The notes under the pieces were generated by a model. The model did not search any database and was not told the origin of the DNA. It saw only the letters and a program-made list of their open reading frames with translations. The position numbers and the translations under genes were made by a program. Shown in pieces: positions 1 to 9,119 of a stretch of 64,000 bases of DNA (its first letter is position 1; each line of letters begins with the position of its first letter). The stretch lies in the NCBI GenBank assembly GCA_965250285.1, contig OZ252299.1, positions 1,952,001 to 2,016,000 of the forward strand, read 5' to 3'. Origin of the DNA: Myxococcota bacterium. Lineage in GTDB: Bacteria > Myxococcota_A > UBA9160 > UBA4427.

Positions 1-771
1 CAGCAGCAGGTCGCGCCGCGCCTCGCGCGCATCGTGACGGTGAGCCAGGCCTCGGCGGTCGAGATCGAGCGCTACTTCGGCATCCCGCAGAAAGACGTGC
101 CGGTGGTCTACAACGGCACCGACACCGATCTCTTCAAGCCCGTGCCCGGCGTCGAGAAGGAGACCGACATGCTCTTCGTCGGTCGCACCGAAGATCGCAA
201 GAAGGGCATCGGCACCATGCTCGAGGCGCTCTCGATGCTGCCCGAGCACGTCACGCTCAAGATCGTCGACGGCCGGATCCCGACCGATGGCCTGGTGCCG
301 CGTCTGATCTCGAAGTACGGCCTGCACGGCCGCGTGAAGATCGTCGATCGCATGCTCACGGTGCCCGAGCTCGTCGAGCAGTACTCGACGGCGAAGGTGG
401 CGATCGTGCCCTCGTTCTTCGAGGGCTTCGGGTTCCCAGCGAGCGAGGCGATGGCCTGCGGCCTCGCCGTGATCGCGAACGCGGCCGGCGCGCTACCCGA
501 GGTCGTCGGCACCGACGGACACGCCGGTCGACTCGTGCCGCAGCGCGATTCGCATGCCATGGCCGAGGCCATGCGCGATGTGCTTTCGAGCCCCGAAAAG
601 ACGGCCGCGATGGGCCGCGCCGCGCGAGAACGCGTGCAGCGCATCTTCCAGTGGAGCGAGGCCGCCGCAGGGCTGGTCGATGTCTTCGAAGAGACGATCC
701 GGGCGCGCCAGGGCGCGTCGCGCATCGGAGGGAGCGCCGGTGCTGCTCACGGTCGACCTCGAGCGGCTTGA
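1..771 (+). CDS. Glycosyltransferase family 4 protein (5'-truncated by window edge)
   Basis: Frame open from base 1; GT4 motif PSFFEGFGFPASEAMACG and VVYNGTD. Confidence 0.9.
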   Translation, partial: QQQVAPRLARIVTVSQASAVEIERYFGIPQKDVPVVYNGTDTDLFKPVPGVEKETDMLFVGRTEDRKKGIGTMLEALSMLPEHVTLKIVDGRIPTDGLVPRLISKYGLHGRVKIVDRMLTVPELVEQYSTAKVAIVPSFFEGFGFPASEAMACGLAVIANAAGALPEVVGTDGHAGRLVPQRDSHAMAEAMRDVLSSPEKTAAMGRAARERVQRIFQWSEAAAGLVDVFEETIRARQGASRIGGSAGAAHGRPRAA

Positions 772-1513
772 CGTCCGCCCCGGCCAGCTGGTGCTCGATG
801 CCGGCTGCGGGGAGGGTCGCCACTGCTTCGGCATGCTGTCTCGCGGCGCGCGGGTGATCGGGCTCGATCTCGACTTCCCCTCGCTGCGCGATGCGAGCAA
901 GCGCCTGCGCAAGGAGGCGGCCAGCGCCGACTCGATCGGCGAGATGATCCAGGGCGACGCGTTTCGCCTGCCCTACCGCGACGGCACCTTCGACCGTGTG
1001 ATCTGCAGTGAGGTCATGGAGCACGTCCACGACTTCCGCGGCGCGGCGCGAGAGCTCGCGCGCGTGACCAAGCCCGGCGGCAAGGTCGCCGTGACGATCC
1101 CCACGACGACGAGCGAGCAGATCTACCTCCGTCTCGGCGACGAGTACTTCGAGAGCCCCGGCGGCCACATCCGCATCTTCTCGCCGCGGCAGCTGGCCGA
1201 AGGCCTGGCGTCGGTCGGGCTCGGCACCGTGGGCGTCGGCTTCGCCCACGGCTTTCACACCCCGTACTGGATCCTGCGCTCGGTCATGCACCTGCCCGAC
1301 GCCGACGAGAGTCGGCTCGTCCAGCTCTACCGGAAGTTCCTGATCCACATCACGGGCTCGAAGCTGATGGATCGCGTCGAGAAGCACGTGCTCAACTACG
1401 TGTGCCCGAAGAGCCTGATCCTGTACGCCGAGAAGCCCCTCGAGCCCGCTTTGGCCCCCGCGTCGCGCGGCACACGCGCGGCCCCCGAGCTCGCGGTGCC
1501 CGCCCCGGCGTAG
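740..1513 (+). CDS. Class I SAM-dependent methyltransferase
   Basis: GTG at 740 after GGAGGGAG; VLDAGCGEGRH, FDRVICSEVMEH, RVTKPGG motifs. Confidence 0.88.
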   Translation: MLLTVDLERLDVRPGQLVLDAGCGEGRHCFGMLSRGARVIGLDLDFPSLRDASKRLRKEAASADSIGEMIQGDAFRLPYRDGTFDRVICSEVMEHVHDFRGAARELARVTKPGGKVAVTIPTTTSEQIYLRLGDEYFESPGGHIRIFSPRQLAEGLASVGLGTVGVGFAHGFHTPYWILRSVMHLPDADESRLVQLYRKFLIHITGSKLMDRVEKHVLNYVCPKSLILYAEKPLEPALAPASRGTRAAPELAVPAPA

Positions 1514-1522
1514 GCGCGCAAC

Positions 1523-2809
1523 GTGTCGCGACCGCTGCGCGTCTGTTTCGTTGCCTACCGCGGCAACATGAACTGCGGTGGACAGGGGGTCTACCTCTGG
1601 TTCCTGGCCCGCGAGCTCGCGCGCATGGGCATCGAGGTCGACACCGTCGTCGGCCCGCCCTACCCCGACCCCATGCCCTTCTCGGGCAGCGTCGAGCGCC
1701 TGCCGAACCGCGAGTTCTGGGGCAAGTGGTTCGGCCGCGACTACCAGGGGATGATCCCCGAACGCCGACTCGACATCTTCCACCCGCTGAATTTCTATGA
1801 GCTCGCCTCGAGCTGGATGGGGTTCCTGCCCGAGCCCTTCGCGTTCAGCGTGCGCGCGCTGCGTCACCTGTCTGCACGCCTGCGCGCGGGCGAGCGCTTC
1901 GACATCGTGCACGACGTGCAGTGCCTCGGCTGGGGTCTGCTCGGCCTGCGGGCGCTGGGGCTGCCCGTGGTGACGACGGTGCATCACCCACTGACGGTCG
2001 ATCGCCGGGCCTCGTTCATTCGCGACGAGAACTTTCGCGAGGCCATCGGCTCGATGCAGTTCTACCCGATCGGGATGCAGTCGACCGTGGCCCGGCACAT
2101 CGATCGCGTGCTGACGAGCAGCGAAGAGAGCGCGCGAACCATCGTGCGCGACTTCGGCGTGCGCCCCGACCGCCTGCGCAACGTCCGCAACGGGCTCGAT
2201 ACCGATCTCTTCAGCCCCGACGCACGTGTCGAGCGCGACGAGAACGAGCTGCTCTGCGTCGGCCGCGCCTCCGACCCGAACAAGGGCATCCGCACGCTGA
2301 TCGCGGCGCTCGCGCGTGTGCCCGGCGAGCTGCACCTGACGCTGGTCGACAACGACCATCCCGGGAACGAGGTCTTCAAGTGGGCGCGCGAGGCCGGCGT
2401 CGAGAAGCGCCTCACCGTGACCGGCCGCGTGCCCCAGGACGAGCTCGTGCGGCTGTACCGACGTGCGGGTCTCGTCGTCGTGCCGTCGCGCTACGAAGGC
2501 TTCGGCCTCCCGGCCGTCGAGGCGATGGCGTGCGAGACGCCGGTCGTCGCATGTCATGCCGGCGCCCTGCCCGAGGTGATGGAGCTGTGCGGCGGAGGCG
2601 AGGTCGTGGCGCGCGACGATCCAGACGCGATCGCCGCCGGCATCGTGCGGCTGCACGATGCGAAGTCGACGCGCCGTGCGCTCGCGCGCGAAGCGCGCCG
2701 ACGCGTGGTCGAGCATCTGTCGTGGAAGACGGTGGCTCGGGCGACGGCGGAGGTCTACGCGGAGGTGCTCGACGAGCGGCGCAGCCGCGCCACGCTCCCG
2801 TCGAGCTGA
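1523..2809 (+). CDS. Glycosyltransferase family 4 protein
   Basis: N-terminal CGGQGVY; C-terminal PSRYEGFGLPAVEAMAC. Confidence 0.9.
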   Translation: MSRPLRVCFVAYRGNMNCGGQGVYLWFLARELARMGIEVDTVVGPPYPDPMPFSGSVERLPNREFWGKWFGRDYQGMIPERRLDIFHPLNFYELASSWMGFLPEPFAFSVRALRHLSARLRAGERFDIVHDVQCLGWGLLGLRALGLPVVTTVHHPLTVDRRASFIRDENFREAIGSMQFYPIGMQSTVARHIDRVLTSSEESARTIVRDFGVRPDRLRNVRNGLDTDLFSPDARVERDENELLCVGRASDPNKGIRTLIAALARVPGELHLTLVDNDHPGNEVFKWAREAGVEKRLTVTGRVPQDELVRLYRRAGLVVVPSRYEGFGLPAVEAMACETPVVACHAGALPEVMELCGGGEVVARDDPDAIAAGIVRLHDAKSTRRALAREARRRVVEHLSWKTVARATAEVYAEVLDERRSRATLPSS

Positions 2810-2830
2810 GTCGGCCGGCGGCTGGTGCGG

Positions 2831-3625
2831 TCAGGCGTCGCTGCGAGCGACGCGCCGCGGGCGGCCCGCGACGACGATGACGTCGGCGAGCGTGGGCCAG
2901 GCCTGCCCCACCCGGTGCATGATCTGGATCGACGCGTCGGCCACCGATCGCGGCAACGCGTGCATGAGCTGCGACCAGCCCGGCATCCCCCAGCCCATCG
3001 ACAGCCCTTCGACGCTCAGGATCTCGAGCTCGGCCTCGCACTGCGCGCGAATCAGATCGACCTCGTACCGCGTGAAGTGGTCGGACGGCGCGTCGTAGCC
3101 ACGCCGATCTCGCAGCGGCCCGACCCCCAGCACGTCCTGCCGAAAGTCGTCGATCGCTCGGCCTGCACGGCACGCGAGCGAGTCGAAGTTCGCGATTGCG
3201 ATCACGACGCGCCCGTCGGGTCGCGTGACGCGCGCCATCTCGGCAATCGCACGTTCGGGACAGTCGAAGTGGTCGAGGGCCCCCTTGCAGAACGCCGCGT
3301 CGAAGCTGTCGTCGGCGAAGGGCAGCGAGTCGGACCAGCCCTGCACCCAGTCGGGCATCTCCAGGTCGTTGTTCGCGGCGTAGAGCTTCGCCATCCCGGT
3401 CATGCGCGACGACGGTTCGGCGCCGAAGGCCACGACGCCGCGCTCGGCCAACGCCATGGCGTCCTGCCCGACGCCGCTGGCCACGTCGAGGATCTTGCGC
3501 CCGGGCTGCGGATCGGTGCGCTCCAGGGTGATCTCGGTCATGCGATCGAACAGAAATTCGCTGTCCGGGGTCATTCCCGTCGGGATGACGTCGCTCATGT
3601 CTCGGTCGAGGTCGACTACGCGCAT
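2831..3625 (-). CDS. Class I SAM-dependent methyltransferase
   Basis: 3' part of ORF 2831..4975 from ATG 3625 (MRVVDLDRD); ILDVASGVG, LPFADDSFDA, RVTRPDG. Confidence 0.85.
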   Translation of the reverse strand: MRVVDLDRDMSDVIPTGMTPDSEFLFDRMTEITLERTDPQPGRKILDVASGVGQDAMALAERGVVAFGAEPSSRMTGMAKLYAANNDLEMPDWVQGWSDSLPFADDSFDAAFCKGALDHFDCPERAIAEMARVTRPDGRVVIAIANFDSLACRAGRAIDDFRQDVLGVGPLRDRRGYDAPSDHFTRYEVDLIRAQCEAELEILSVEGLSMGWGMPGWSQLMHALPRSVADASIQIMHRVGQAWPTLADVIVVAGRPRRVARSDA

Positions 3626-3727
3626 GGCGGCGGACGGTAGCCAGGGGCCGCCCCGCCTGCACGCGAGGGGGCCGGCGCCGCGAGGTGCGGGCCCGGGATG
3701 GACCGAGCAGGTATGATCCTCGAACCG

Positions 3728-4984
3728 ATGACGACCGAAACCGGACAGGAGCCGCTCTCGCTCTCCCGTTCTCTGGTCGAGGCCGGCCAGGCCGCCGGCG
3801 AGCGACTCTACTCGTTTCGTGTCTACTACGTCGCGATCTTCGTCTTCCTGCTGCTCTACCTGTTCACGGTGCGCCTGGCCGAGAACGCCCTGGACGCCCA
3901 CTTCCAGGCCGTCGCCGACAGCGCGGTCATCGTGACCGACCTCGACCGCCCGATCTCGGAGCAGATCGACGAGGCTCTGGTGGCGAACATCGACGGAACG
4001 CGCTGGGTGCGCTGGGGCGGTGCCGAGGTCACCACCCTCGTCCTCGCGAGCGACGGCGTGACCTGGCTCTACGTGAACGGCCGCGACATTCCGCAGCCCG
4101 AGGGCCTCGAGCCGACCGACGTCCTGCGCCAGGCGATCGAGCTTCTGCCGGCCCAGGCCGACGTCTCGGCCTCGTTGCCGCACAACGCGCTGCTCGCGAA
4201 TGCGATCCTCATCGTGTACGCGGCCATCCTGCTCCAGTTCCTCTACTTCTACACCCGCGCGACCCAGCGGCGCGATGGCGCGCGCCTCGACGCGGCGCTC
4301 GCGTCCCGCGACGAGACGGCGATCCGCGCAGAGCAGATCTCGGTCGAGCTCGAGACCGTGCGCTCGCGCCTGCAGCAGGTCGAGCCCGCCGAGCGCGAGC
4401 ACGGCGAAGAGATCCGCTCGCTCCAGAAGGAACGCCTCACGCTGCAGTCGCAGCTGCAGCGACTCGCGACGCGCGAAGAGGAGCTGCGCGGCAAGGCCGA
4501 CCAGGCCGTCGAGCTGTCGCAGGAGGTGCGCGCCCTCGAGGACCTGCTCGAAGAGGCCGGCTCCGACCTCGCGAGCAAGGACGACGAGATCCGGGATCTC
4601 GAGCGAAACCTGAAGAAGGTCTCGAGGGGCAGTGGCTCGAGCAAGCGCGGCACCGATGCGATGGGTCGACGGCTGCGCACGCTCTACAAGGGGCTCGAGA
4701 TCGATGACCGCGCTGTCGAGGACATGGTCGGGCTGGGCGACGAGACCATGCGGCTCAAGGCCGAAGAGAAGCTCAAGCGCCTCGAGTCGGAGGCGGACAA
4801 CGTGTCGGTACGTCGCAAGGTCGGCGGACTGCCCGATCAGCTCTCGATCTTCGAGCTGGGCTTCGCCGGCAAGGGCCGCATCTACTACTGCCGCGGCCAG
4901 CAGCAGCGCTTCCGCATCCTGTGCATCGGCGCGAAGAACTCGCAAGACGCCGATCTGGACTATCTGCGACGCCACATGAGCTGA
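3728..4984 (+). CDS. Two-TM membrane protein with coiled coil and C-terminal RelE/ParE-like domain (start could also be 3698 or 3713)
   Basis: Hydrophobic segments VYYVAIFVFLLLYLFTV and LLANAILIVYAAILLQFLYFY; long E/Q/L/R-rich helical region; C-terminal IFELGFAGKGRIYY...ILCIGAKNSQDADL. Confidence 0.75.
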   Translation: MTTETGQEPLSLSRSLVEAGQAAGERLYSFRVYYVAIFVFLLLYLFTVRLAENALDAHFQAVADSAVIVTDLDRPISEQIDEALVANIDGTRWVRWGGAEVTTLVLASDGVTWLYVNGRDIPQPEGLEPTDVLRQAIELLPAQADVSASLPHNALLANAILIVYAAILLQFLYFYTRATQRRDGARLDAALASRDETAIRAEQISVELETVRSRLQQVEPAEREHGEEIRSLQKERLTLQSQLQRLATREEELRGKADQAVELSQEVRALEDLLEEAGSDLASKDDEIRDLERNLKKVSRGSGSSKRGTDAMGRRLRTLYKGLEIDDRAVEDMVGLGDETMRLKAEEKLKRLESEADNVSVRRKVGGLPDQLSIFELGFAGKGRIYYCRGQQQRFRILCIGAKNSQDADLDYLRRHMS

Positions 4985-5074: not shown

Positions 5075-5446
5075 TCAACCGAGGCGGTCATGAAGCAGTC
5101 GCTTCAGCTCGTCTTCGTCCCAGGGCTTCGGCAGGATCGCCAGGATCCCGGCGGCCTCGGCCCGCCCGGCCGGCACCTCTTCGGGCCAACCGGTCAGCAG
5201 CGCACGACCGACGTCGGGCCAACGCCGCGCGACCTCTTCGAGCAGCTCGAGCCCGGTTGTCCCCGGCATCTTCTGATCGGAGAGGACGAAGTCGACGCGC
5301 CGGGCTTCGAGCAGCGCCCTCGCGGCATCGGCGCCCTCGGCGAGCAGCAGCTCGAAGCCTTCACGACGCAGCGAGCGGCGCAGTGCGCTCAGGATCCGCG
5401 ACTCGTCATCCACGAGCAGCAGCGTCGGCGCCGCACCGCTAGCCAC
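5075..5446 (-). CDS. Single-domain response regulator
   Basis: LLVDDE, VLSDQKMPGTTGLELL, LLTG and KPW receiver motifs. Confidence 0.9.
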   Translation of the reverse strand: MASGAAPTLLLVDDESRILSALRRSLRREGFELLLAEGADAARALLEARRVDFVLSDQKMPGTTGLELLEEVARRWPDVGRALLTGWPEEVPAGRAEAAGILAILPKPWDEDELKRLLHDRLG

Positions 5447-7224: not shown

Positions 7225-7596
7225 CTACCCCAGGGTCTTCGGCGCCCCAACCCCGCGCGGCTCCGCCGCGTCGTCGAACGCGTGGGCCTGATCGGCCGCG
7301 TCGTCCCCCGATGCGGACACGGCGGCCGGGCTGCGCAGCTCGGCGACGTTGATGCCGTGCTTGCCCGCCTTGCGGTAGAAGGTGCTGCGCCCGATCCCGA
7401 GCAGTCTCGCGGCCTCGGAGGCATCCCCCCACGTCTCGATCAGGGCGCGCTCCAGCGCGGCCTTCTCGTACGCATCGAGCGAGAGCGGAAGGTTCCGCTG
7501 GAGCCACTCCGGCGCCGCCAGCGCCGAAGCCGGGGCATCGGGTGCCGGTGTGGCTGCGGGGCTCGGGCCCGAGCTGGATGCGTCGCGTTCCGCCAT
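7225..7596 (-). CDS. Stand-alone Fis-type HTH protein
   Basis: LDAYEKAALERAL...GDASEAARLLGIGRSTFYRKAGKHGI matches the Fis/HTH_8 pattern; ATG at 7596. Confidence 0.75.
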   Translation of the reverse strand: MAERDASSSGPSPAATPAPDAPASALAAPEWLQRNLPLSLDAYEKAALERALIETWGDASEAARLLGIGRSTFYRKAGKHGINVAELRSPAAVSASGDDAADQAHAFDDAAEPRGVGAPKTLG

Positions 7597-7603
7597 GCCA
7601 GCG

Positions 7604-7631
7604 GCATCGGCAGATGTTCGGAACGCCTTGA
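7604..7631 (-). promoter_or_regulatory. Putative sigma-28-type promoter TCAA-N16-GCCGATGC
   Basis: Minus strand reads TCAA ggcgttccgaacatct GCCGATGC, ending 7 nt before the ATG at 7596. Confidence 0.6.
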
Positions 7632-7727
7632 GCGGGCGATGCCTTCGCCCGCGCCGCACTCGCGCTTGCTCCGTCTTCCACACGCCTCTATGTTCGTAAG
7701 GCCCCCTCCGCCACGCGGAGAAGTCCC

Positions 7728-9119
<1,392 letters not shown>

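Follow-up and report, generated by a model that had tools for sequence, protein, structure and literature searches.

A predicted two-pass membrane protein family of Myxococcota and Desulfobacterota that ends in a RelE/ParE-fold domain and has no adjacent antitoxin

Proteins of the RelE fold are known as poisons held in check by antitoxins or as defence effectors. Membrane-anchored ribonucleases are known as well: in eukaryotes, IRE1 links a sensor in the lumen to an RNase in the cytosol, and bacterial RNase Y joins an anchor and a coiled coil to a nuclease domain. The folds of IRE1 (KEN) and RNase Y (KH-HD) are unrelated to RelE, and their analogy to the protein described here is one of layout only. 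Toxins of the HigB/Tad (Gp49) type are soluble proteins of 100–125 residues that have a downstream HTH antitoxin, are sporadic in distribution, and are often mobile. ToxM of the ToxM-ToxR system is a predicted transmembrane RelE/ParE toxin with an N-terminal toxin domain, one transmembrane region, and a co-transcribed RHH/HTH antitoxin, toxR lying upstream; the account given of ToxM describes no stalk (Gerdes 2025, PMC11980606). Cami1 is a type III CRISPR effector (CARF-RelE; structures 8phb and 8phj) in which a sensor-fused RelE domain is able to cleave mRNA at the A site; it is soluble, binds cyclic tetra-adenylate via its CARF domain, and sits in CRISPR loci (PMC11229360).

Within the window (the whole stretch of 64,000 nucleotides of Myxococcota DNA that was analysed), the gene for the protein P0001 and its two neighbours are laid out as follows.

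2831..3625, minus strand: divergent gene for a class I SAM methyltransferase (PF08241), not an antitoxin
3728..4984, plus strand: gene for the TM-periplasmic-TM-stalk-RelE protein P0001 (ORF translation, 418 residues from ATG 3728)
3821..3877, plus strand: predicted TM helix 1, residues 32–50 (hydropathy; helix in the model)
3884..4183, plus strand: predicted periplasmic alpha/beta domain, residues 53–152 (model; no family match)
4187..4243, plus strand: predicted TM helix 2, residues 154–172, followed by basic residues (hydropathy)
4256..4621, plus strand: predicted cytoplasmic helical stalk, residues 177–298 (model; heptad pattern significant in 221–298)
4622..4684, plus strand: flexible linker rich in S, G, R, and K, then a conserved helix, residues 306–319 (pLDDT below 50 at 286–305; conservation)
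4688..4981, plus strand: RelE/ParE-fold domain of HigB/Gp49 type, residues 321–418 (profile, model, and structure matches)
5075..5446, minus strand: convergent gene for a stand-alone receiver (REC; PF00072)

The C-terminal domain of P0001 resembles the HigB/Tad toxins in its fold and in a K...E.x...R...K-N-x-Q constellation of residues. Unlike these toxins, the members of the P0001 family are membrane proteins of 380–430 residues that lack an adjacent antitoxin and are inherited in a tree-like manner. Similar to ToxM, P0001 combines a cytoplasmic RelE/ParE-fold domain with a membrane segment and a periplasmic part, in both cases by prediction; P0001 is nevertheless not a ToxM protein, as its RelE domain is C-terminal, it has two membrane helices, and no toxR accompanies it. 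Six motifs of the family were absent from the portions of the PMC11980606 supplementary tables that were searched. That survey, by its own description, excluded multidomain families in which no antitoxin could be identified, so proteins of the present family may have come up in it without being reported. Cami1, at approximately 380 residues, shares with the P0001 layout a C-terminal RelE domain and a fused sensor in place of an antitoxin (PMC11229360). In contrast to Cami1, P0001 has the layout of a membrane receptor and housekeeping or exopolysaccharide neighbours; no CARF match was found in P0001 with Pfam, and no cas genes occur among the recurring neighbours. A description of this architecture was not found in the literature searched, which lay mostly outside the subscription journals. 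The receptor layout of P0001 is a predicted one, and among sensor-fused RelE proteins the family is distinct as a vertically kept two-pass membrane receptor.

Because a HigB-type pocket is carried on a two-pass receptor without an antitoxin, a tethered RNase that is weak or gated would be the simplest reading of P0001. Stated more fully, P0001 may be a domesticated, membrane-tethered RNase of the HigB/Tad type that has low activity and is controlled by its own receptor part, a tentative reading to which a probability of roughly 45% is assigned. The basis for this reading is the architecture, the fold match, the conservation of residues, tree-like inheritance, the lack of an adjacent HTH antitoxin, and, in Desulfobacterota, linkage to prsT and PEP-CTERM/exopolysaccharide genes.

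Residues of P0001 are numbered from ATG 3728. Further in-frame ATGs are present at 3698 and 3713, and 3713 is the likelier start, given the length of 423 residues in two of the three closest relatives. The gene has a GC3 of 0.91 and codon use typical of the genome. Using a simple hydropathy window method rather than a trained predictor, two membrane helices separated by a loop of approximately 105–117 residues are found in 117 of 120 full-length homologs of the near subfamily (that of P0001) and in 62 of 63 of a second, far subfamily. The mean count of K and R in these homologs is 2.3–2.7 just after TM2 vs 0.2–1.15 just before it, and this bias predicts that the stalk and the C-terminal domain are cytoplasmic, as the initial annotation of this DNA had supposed. 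That annotation, made from the sequence alone, read the protein as TM1, an outside region of about 100 residues, TM2, a coiled coil, and a RelE-like end, and this order is borne out by hydropathy, by heptad periodicity, and by the Foldseek and VIA searches described below. The heptad periodicity of residues 221–298 was reached by 0 of 1000 shuffles, while that of residues 177–219 is not significant (reached by 233 of 1000). The predicted helix running from TM2 to residue 291 comprises approximately 116 residues and would extend approximately 17 nm at 0.15 nm per residue. A ribosome bound to the translocon has its decoding site at about this distance from the membrane, a correspondence that is suggestive only. 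The stalk of the far subfamily is approximately 18 residues shorter. In one far member, P0220, the stalk appears partly deleted along with TM2, which may be an assembly artefact.

The periplasmic domain gave no Pfam or ESM Atlas match, an ESM Atlas search with the N-terminal part as a whole gave no usable match, and a structure search with the whole model returned only generic helical matches in this region. The domain may have a reduced Cache/PDC-like look. The periplasmic domains of the two subfamilies are homologous (hhalign probability 97%). Pfam returned only coiled-coil noise on P0001, and PF28487 was reported on 3 of 120 homologs. The proposal that P0001 is a one-component system gated by oligomerisation, in the manner of IRE1, is drawn by analogy from this layout; a homodimer prediction for P0001 scored 0.16 against a mark of 0.42 and has no bearing on the proposal either way.

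The fold of the C-terminal domain has been probed with structure searches. The domain model (pLDDT 88.4, pTM 0.82) gave three Foldseek matches with E below 0.001, all of them to RelE, the best being E. coli RelE (E 5.4e-4). With the same model, the top 24 rows of a VIA search all come from the RelE/ParE superfamily, led by Streptococcus pneumoniae HigB (6af3; Z 9.7, rmsd 2.9, 93 residues aligned) and including Mycobacterium tuberculosis RelE1 (Z 9.4), PrpT (Z 9.1), M. tuberculosis HigB1 (7nbu; Z 8.9), YoeB (Z 8.9), and Cami1 (Z 8.1), whose match spans only residues 263–364; the first unrelated row has a Z of 5.5. The full-length model gave the same structural families. As modelled, the C-terminal domain of P0001 therefore belongs to the RelE/ParE (BECR-fold) superfamily, the fold that the initial annotation had expected a structure search to return.

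Membership in a named family within this superfamily is less clear-cut in profile searches. TIGR02683 matches the last 108 residues of P0001 with E 7.7e-4 and 19.8 bits, where the NCBIfam cut-off is 62.85, and it matches 28 of 30 family members weakly (best E 5.7e-5, below the cut-off). Gp49 (PF05973) matches 11 of the 30 members (best E 0.0019). None of these members reaches the curated cut-offs of Gp49/HigB (PF05973, TIGR02683). Aligning the domain profile of the family to Gp49 with hhalign gave a probability of 52%. In the ESM Atlas, the best scores for the C-terminal domain (0.81) fall in unnamed clusters and the nearest named clusters are ParE-like (0.75), where the lead level is 0.9; a PDB sequence search with the domain profile gave no real match.

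ParE structures score Z 8.0–9.1 in the VIA search, close to the RNases, and since rows within 1 Z are tied, the fold cannot separate RNases from ParE. A ParE-like action, in which the domain binds DNA gyrase or another protein instead of RNA, is nonetheless the least probable of the readings considered and would be surprising: ParE toxins are described as lacking the RNase catalytic residues (PMC11980606), whereas the P0001 family keeps the HigB-type set.

This set was examined in 158 domains sharing less than 80% identity, out of 297 complete domains. P0001 carries R362, R363, K364, E376, G378, R384, Y386, K403, N404, and Q406. Across the 158 domains, K/R362 and R384 are present in all, R363, K364, Y386, G401, and K403 in 157, E376 and Q406 in 156, and N404 in 139. 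The core beta2 Glu, beta3 Arg, and general-acid Lys of Gp49/HigB are kept as E376, R384, and K403, which align with the invariant E, R, and K of 23 Gp49-family toxins. The initial annotation had remarked that the arginine of the ELR motif reads as glycine and that the second arginine is retained, and the profile alignment agrees, placing G378 and R384 at these positions. Position 378 is occupied by G in 58 domains, V in 29, I in 17, L in 15, E in 14, R in 2, and K in none; the ELR arginine (R68 in HigB1, K54 in RelE) is consequently found in 2 of 158 family domains vs 21 of 23 control Gp49 toxins. The toxin Tad of pAMI2, which is said to be toxic, has Val at this position, as do many Desulfobacterales members. 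The RelE/ParE gene of pAMI2 precedes an HTH gene and for this reason is taken to be that of Tad, and the RNase activity of Tad is presented as a proposal only (PMC2701414, PMC3832669). From strand register, it is possible that K/R362 or R363 compensates for the lost arginine.

The RelE domain is also the slowest-evolving part of the protein in both subfamilies. Its identity is 0.73 vs 0.49–0.58 elsewhere in the near subfamily and 0.51 vs 0.25–0.28 in the far subfamily, and it has the lowest pN in 5 of 5 pairs. The mean net charge of the domain (+2.9/+3.5) equals that of the Gp49 set (+3) and speaks for the RNase reading, but the domain of P0001 itself has a net charge of 0, which speaks against it. 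Additionally, R315 and Y320, located in and just after the conserved helix 306–319 that precedes the RelE core, are invariant in the family.

In HigB1 of M. tuberculosis, the residues K58, E66, R68, N73, R77, K95, Q98, and K99 surround the mRNA, and N96 sits on 16S rRNA (PMC9098466). In our own reading of the HigB1 sequence, backed by the profile alignment, K58, E66, R77, K95, N96, and Q98 correspond to K364, E376, R384, K403, N404, and Q406, while R68 is lost (G378), the loop bearing N73 is shorter, and K99 falls on position 407, which varies (K in 30 of 158). Substitution of K58, R68, R77, K95, or K99 with alanine inhibited the toxicity of HigB1, R68A and K99A abolishing it, and N73A strongly lowers it (PMC9098466). 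The loss of R68, the variability of K99, and the short N73 loop thus count against activity in the P0001 family. For E. coli RelE, K54A causes no significant drop in cleavage, while R61A and R81A lower it (PMC2807027). Since RelE K54A still cleaves and Tad has Val at the equivalent position, the lost ELR arginine is not decisive.

Mapping of the family onto RelE is tentative, because hhalign against the single E. coli RelE or YoeB sequence gives a probability of approximately 2% or less. In this low-probability alignment, K364-V365 matches K43-L44 of RelE, which contacts the decoding-centre adenines, and the RelE residues K13, K17, K28, and K29 on helices 1 and 2, which contact rRNA (PMC2807027), fall on E331, G335, E347, and the variable position 348. 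Residue 347 is Glu in 150 of 158 domains, and both E346 and E347 are nearly invariant acids; R328 and K344 are conserved basic residues of the family domain. In this register, the acidic or variable residues at the rRNA-contact positions would argue against canonical A-site binding. RelE Y87 has no clear aromatic counterpart in the family (D409/L410). One RelE, moreover, is described as cleaving 16S rRNA in place of mRNA (PMC12620021).

These losses bring in a second reading, in which a membrane scaffold ends in a RelE domain that has no catalytic activity and acts as an adaptor binding RNA, ribosomes, or proteins. Such an adaptor might, for instance, keep ribosomes or mRNAs beside the machinery for exopolysaccharide export. 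The family-wide loss at the R68/K54 position, the variable K99 position, and the shortened beta2-beta3 loop are consistent with such an adaptor, as are the acids E346/E347 where RelE has rRNA-binding lysines, the long vertical retention without an antitoxin, and the family-specific invariant residues R315, Y320, and E346, which suggest a new surface. Moreover, M. tuberculosis HigB2 and HigB3, which lack the pocket residues, are reported as non-toxic (PMC9098466). Against an adaptor, the general-acid Lys, the transition-state Arg, and the beta2 Glu are nearly invariant across subfamilies that share only 21–29% identity, and Tad tolerates the same Val. As a binding role could also conserve catalytic residues, their conservation only lowers the odds of an adaptor, and an inactive adaptor, though doubtful, is nearly as plausible as the tethered RNase. 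The initial annotation had offered a domesticated inactive RelE as one option. Domestication is upheld by the single copy, the conserved synteny, the tree-like inheritance, and the lack of an adjacent antitoxin, whereas inactivity is weakened, because the 158 domains show almost no variation at the remaining catalytic-site positions and Tad is likewise without the ELR arginine.

In the tethered-RNase reading, the periplasmic domain and the stalk would take over the control that an antitoxin otherwise exerts. Co-oriented ORFs of 45–160 residues within 200 bp of the gene were collected at 28 near loci (53 ORFs), 80 far loci (124 ORFs), and 23 control Gp49-toxin loci (48 ORFs); the contigs have room upstream at 98 and downstream at 100 of the 108 family loci. 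No HTH, RHH, or antitoxin Pfam family is found among the 177 flanking ORFs of the family loci, while an HTH gene adjoins 17 of the 23 controls, in line with the earlier remark that no small antitoxin ORF lies beside the gene. Nor did Pfam reveal an antitoxin domain fused within P0001. The locus is consequently not a type II toxin-antitoxin module as defined by an adjacent or fused antitoxin. P0001 could still be an ordinary type II toxin that has an RNA antitoxin, an antitoxin encoded in trans, or one from a family outside Pfam, and PMC2701414 treats solo toxins of the in-trans kind; the search just described covers only ORFs of the stated size, orientation, and distance. This explanation is very unlikely, as neighbourhood clustering shows no conserved small co-oriented ORF, and the Gp49 toxins of the same phylum are sporadic (26 of 101 genomes) and divergent (mean column identity 34%), whereas the family has a mean column identity of 76%.

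The P0001 family is unnamed, conserved, mostly single-copy, and inherited in a tree-like manner. One sequence search returned 913 proteins among 7998 scored candidates, from Myxococcota where named. The gene is present in 36 of 41 related genomes, nearly always in one copy, and no paralog of P0001 was found in its own genome. Among 201 genomes sampled across the phylum, strong matches occur in 27 of 33 from the source order and in none of five from a sister family in the same class; four weak partial matches elsewhere in the sample (E approximately 1e-4) were treated as noise. The domain profile matched 231 of 1.84 billion representatives, and the best 150 of these 231 include the far subfamily, whose members have the same layout in approximately 382 residues at 21–29% identity to the near subfamily, and two intermediates at 29–34% identity; no free-standing toxin ancestor was seen among these 150. 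Of 308 pattern matches in a genome scan, 298 are relatives, and the 80 best of these come mostly from Desulfobacterales. The gene occurs in 67 of 151 genomes of the class Desulfobacteria, a few copies being split or partial, and in 15 of 351 genomes across the phylum Desulfobacterota; Desulfonema magnum, which is among the best 80, and a Desulfosudis oleivorans genome are named cultured carriers. In a quick IQ-TREE tree of 70 rows, the two subfamilies are separated and the genomes of the Myxococcota order are joined by genus and family. Fourteen short proteins inspected as stand-alone forms proved to be family fragments or chimeras, the best 120 of 164 short matches lie mostly on short contigs, and P0267 and P0271 are spurious repeat proteins that were dropped. 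No proteomic evidence for the family was found in the literature searched.

Gene order around P0001 is fixed in the Myxococcota order. The initial annotation had described the neighbours as divergent or convergent, which fits the methyltransferase and receiver genes, each separated from the P0001 gene by approximately 90–100 bp. The methyltransferase is found in 18 of 19 loci of the order, the listed match being divergent in 17, and the convergent receiver is kept in 26 of 27. In most of 20 loci, the order runs anmK, a small membrane gene, GT4, methyltransferase, GT4, divergent methyltransferase, the P0001 gene, convergent receiver, PAS histidine kinase, sigma-54 regulators, and a sigma factor gene that, by eye, we take to be fliA-like.

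This setting bears on the idea that P0001 is an anti-phage effector that perceives infection or envelope damage through its membrane part and then releases the RelE domain to arrest translation, the mode of action of Cami1 and the one proposed for ToxM. Known sensor-fused RelE domains are described as defence effectors (PMC11229360, PMC11980606), and the distribution in Desulfobacteria is patchy, but the gene holds a fixed chromosomal position across the order and its tree follows genera and families. Moreover, the genes that recur nearby are those for glycosyltransferases, two-component proteins, PrsT, and exopolysaccharide synthesis rather than defence genes, PADLOC, run on seven family proteins, gave weak matches limited to the coiled coil, and no match was found to the P0001 domain in 50,697 phage records or to one far member in 72,556 plasmids. 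An anti-phage role is thus improbable.

The Desulfobacterota members are associated with the PEP-CTERM/exopolysaccharide system. In Desulfobacterales, a TPR protein of 760 residues that scores above the PrsT cut-off (TIGR02917) is encoded beside the family gene. In 58 of 70 loci with room, prsT lies directly upstream on the same strand, often 11–60 bp away, and in 26 of 58 loci with room a gene for the PEP-CTERM ATPase, Wzz, Wzc, Wza, or an outer-membrane protein lies downstream. Twenty further loci were picked by hand; 19 matched, and in 17 of these prsT or the ATPase gene adjoins, three of the 17 being on a basal branch. Carriers and non-carriers among Desulfobacteria were compared using the first 20 of each as listed, with the centre genome excluded from the carriers and with kin that are not independent; PrsT is present in 17 of 20 carriers vs 2 of 20 non-carriers and exosortase in 13 of 20 vs 4 of 20. 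Within the PrsK/PrsR/PrsT system, the family gene of Desulfobacterota thus usually follows prsT and often adjoins the ATPase and chain-length genes. The role of PrsT in the PEP-CTERM/XrtA system is a predicted one, and the description of that system does not name the family gene (Haft 2006, PMC1569441).

The gene shows no linkage to prsT or exosortase in the Myxococcota order. In the source genome, the PEP-CTERM/XrtA system is unlinked to the P0001 gene: a PrsT-like gene, Wzz, and the ATPase gene are located near 6.01–6.02 Mb, approximately 4 Mb away. An exosortase gene 66 kb upstream is separated by unrelated genes and was discounted, and an exosortase without the family gene is found in 4 of 5 sister-family genomes. 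Owing to this distance and to the sister-family exosortases, the envelope link is shown for one subfamily only. Six Desulfobacteria genomes (G447, G578, G595, G596, G598, G611) have prsT and the family gene with no exosortase match, so the prsT pairing may outlast exosortase, although incomplete assemblies could also explain this.

The tethered-RNase reading suggests the following mechanism. First, the periplasmic domain would sense an envelope partner or state, the partner in Desulfobacterota perhaps being the TPR lipoprotein PrsT. Next, TM2 and the continuous stalk would pass the signal inward. The tethered domain would then engage RNA with residues K364, E376, R384, K403, N404, and Q406 and cut mRNA, most likely on ribosomes near the membrane, while the tether and the loss of several rRNA-binding basic residues would limit its basal toxicity. 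Synthesis of envelope proteins would thereby be subject to post-transcriptional control or quality control. A bolder and more speculative version, which we regard as rather unlikely, is that two deep lineages of the former Deltaproteobacteria made a HigB/Tad-type toxin into a housekeeping receptor, the periplasmic domain (with PrsT in Desulfobacterota) reading the envelope and the stalk bringing a live nuclease to the decoding site of membrane-bound ribosomes as an IRE1-like route to mRNA cleavage. A vertically inherited, single-copy receptor ending in a RelE fold would show that a toxin domain can be domesticated into regulation, and the family would add a candidate partner for PrsT. If active, it would offer a direct route from the periplasm to translation; if inactive, it would still be a new large family in which a pseudo-nuclease is kept under strong selection.

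Several further features of the neighbourhoods were observed. The cluster of GT4, methyltransferase, GT4, and divergent methyltransferase genes with anmK (1–3625 and upstream) is kept across the Myxococcota order, and its conserved small membrane gene encodes 88 residues with no Pfam family. On the other side of P0001, the ORF at 7225–7860 (minus strand) encodes only a Fis-type HTH; several relatives have a sigma-54-type regulator of 450–490 residues at that position, so this ORF may be a truncated or misassembled gene. Upstream in four genomes is an ORF of 90–110 residues (L034:7607-7921, L036:7682-8002, L038:5591-5920, L032:5439-5708), presumably PilZ-like from its appearance; Pfam gave no match on the one of the four searched. 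A type IV pilus cluster is located approximately 26–48 kb upstream of the P0001 gene (G000:C1:1907204-1929983) and, with names assigned by eye, presumably includes a TPR protein of 1139 residues and an ExeA-like ATPase. In the far subfamily, a stand-alone receiver gene whose products are 67–85% identical lies downstream in either orientation at 13 of 72 loci (L041-L052, L056, L062); the downstream receivers of the two subfamilies were not treated as orthologs. Finally, rpsF follows the family gene on the same strand in seven Desulfobacterales loci (L077, L080, L082, L100, L106, L107, L109), confirmed with Pfam in two of them, and is followed by genes that, by eye, we take to resemble rpsR, rplI, dnaB, and hflX.
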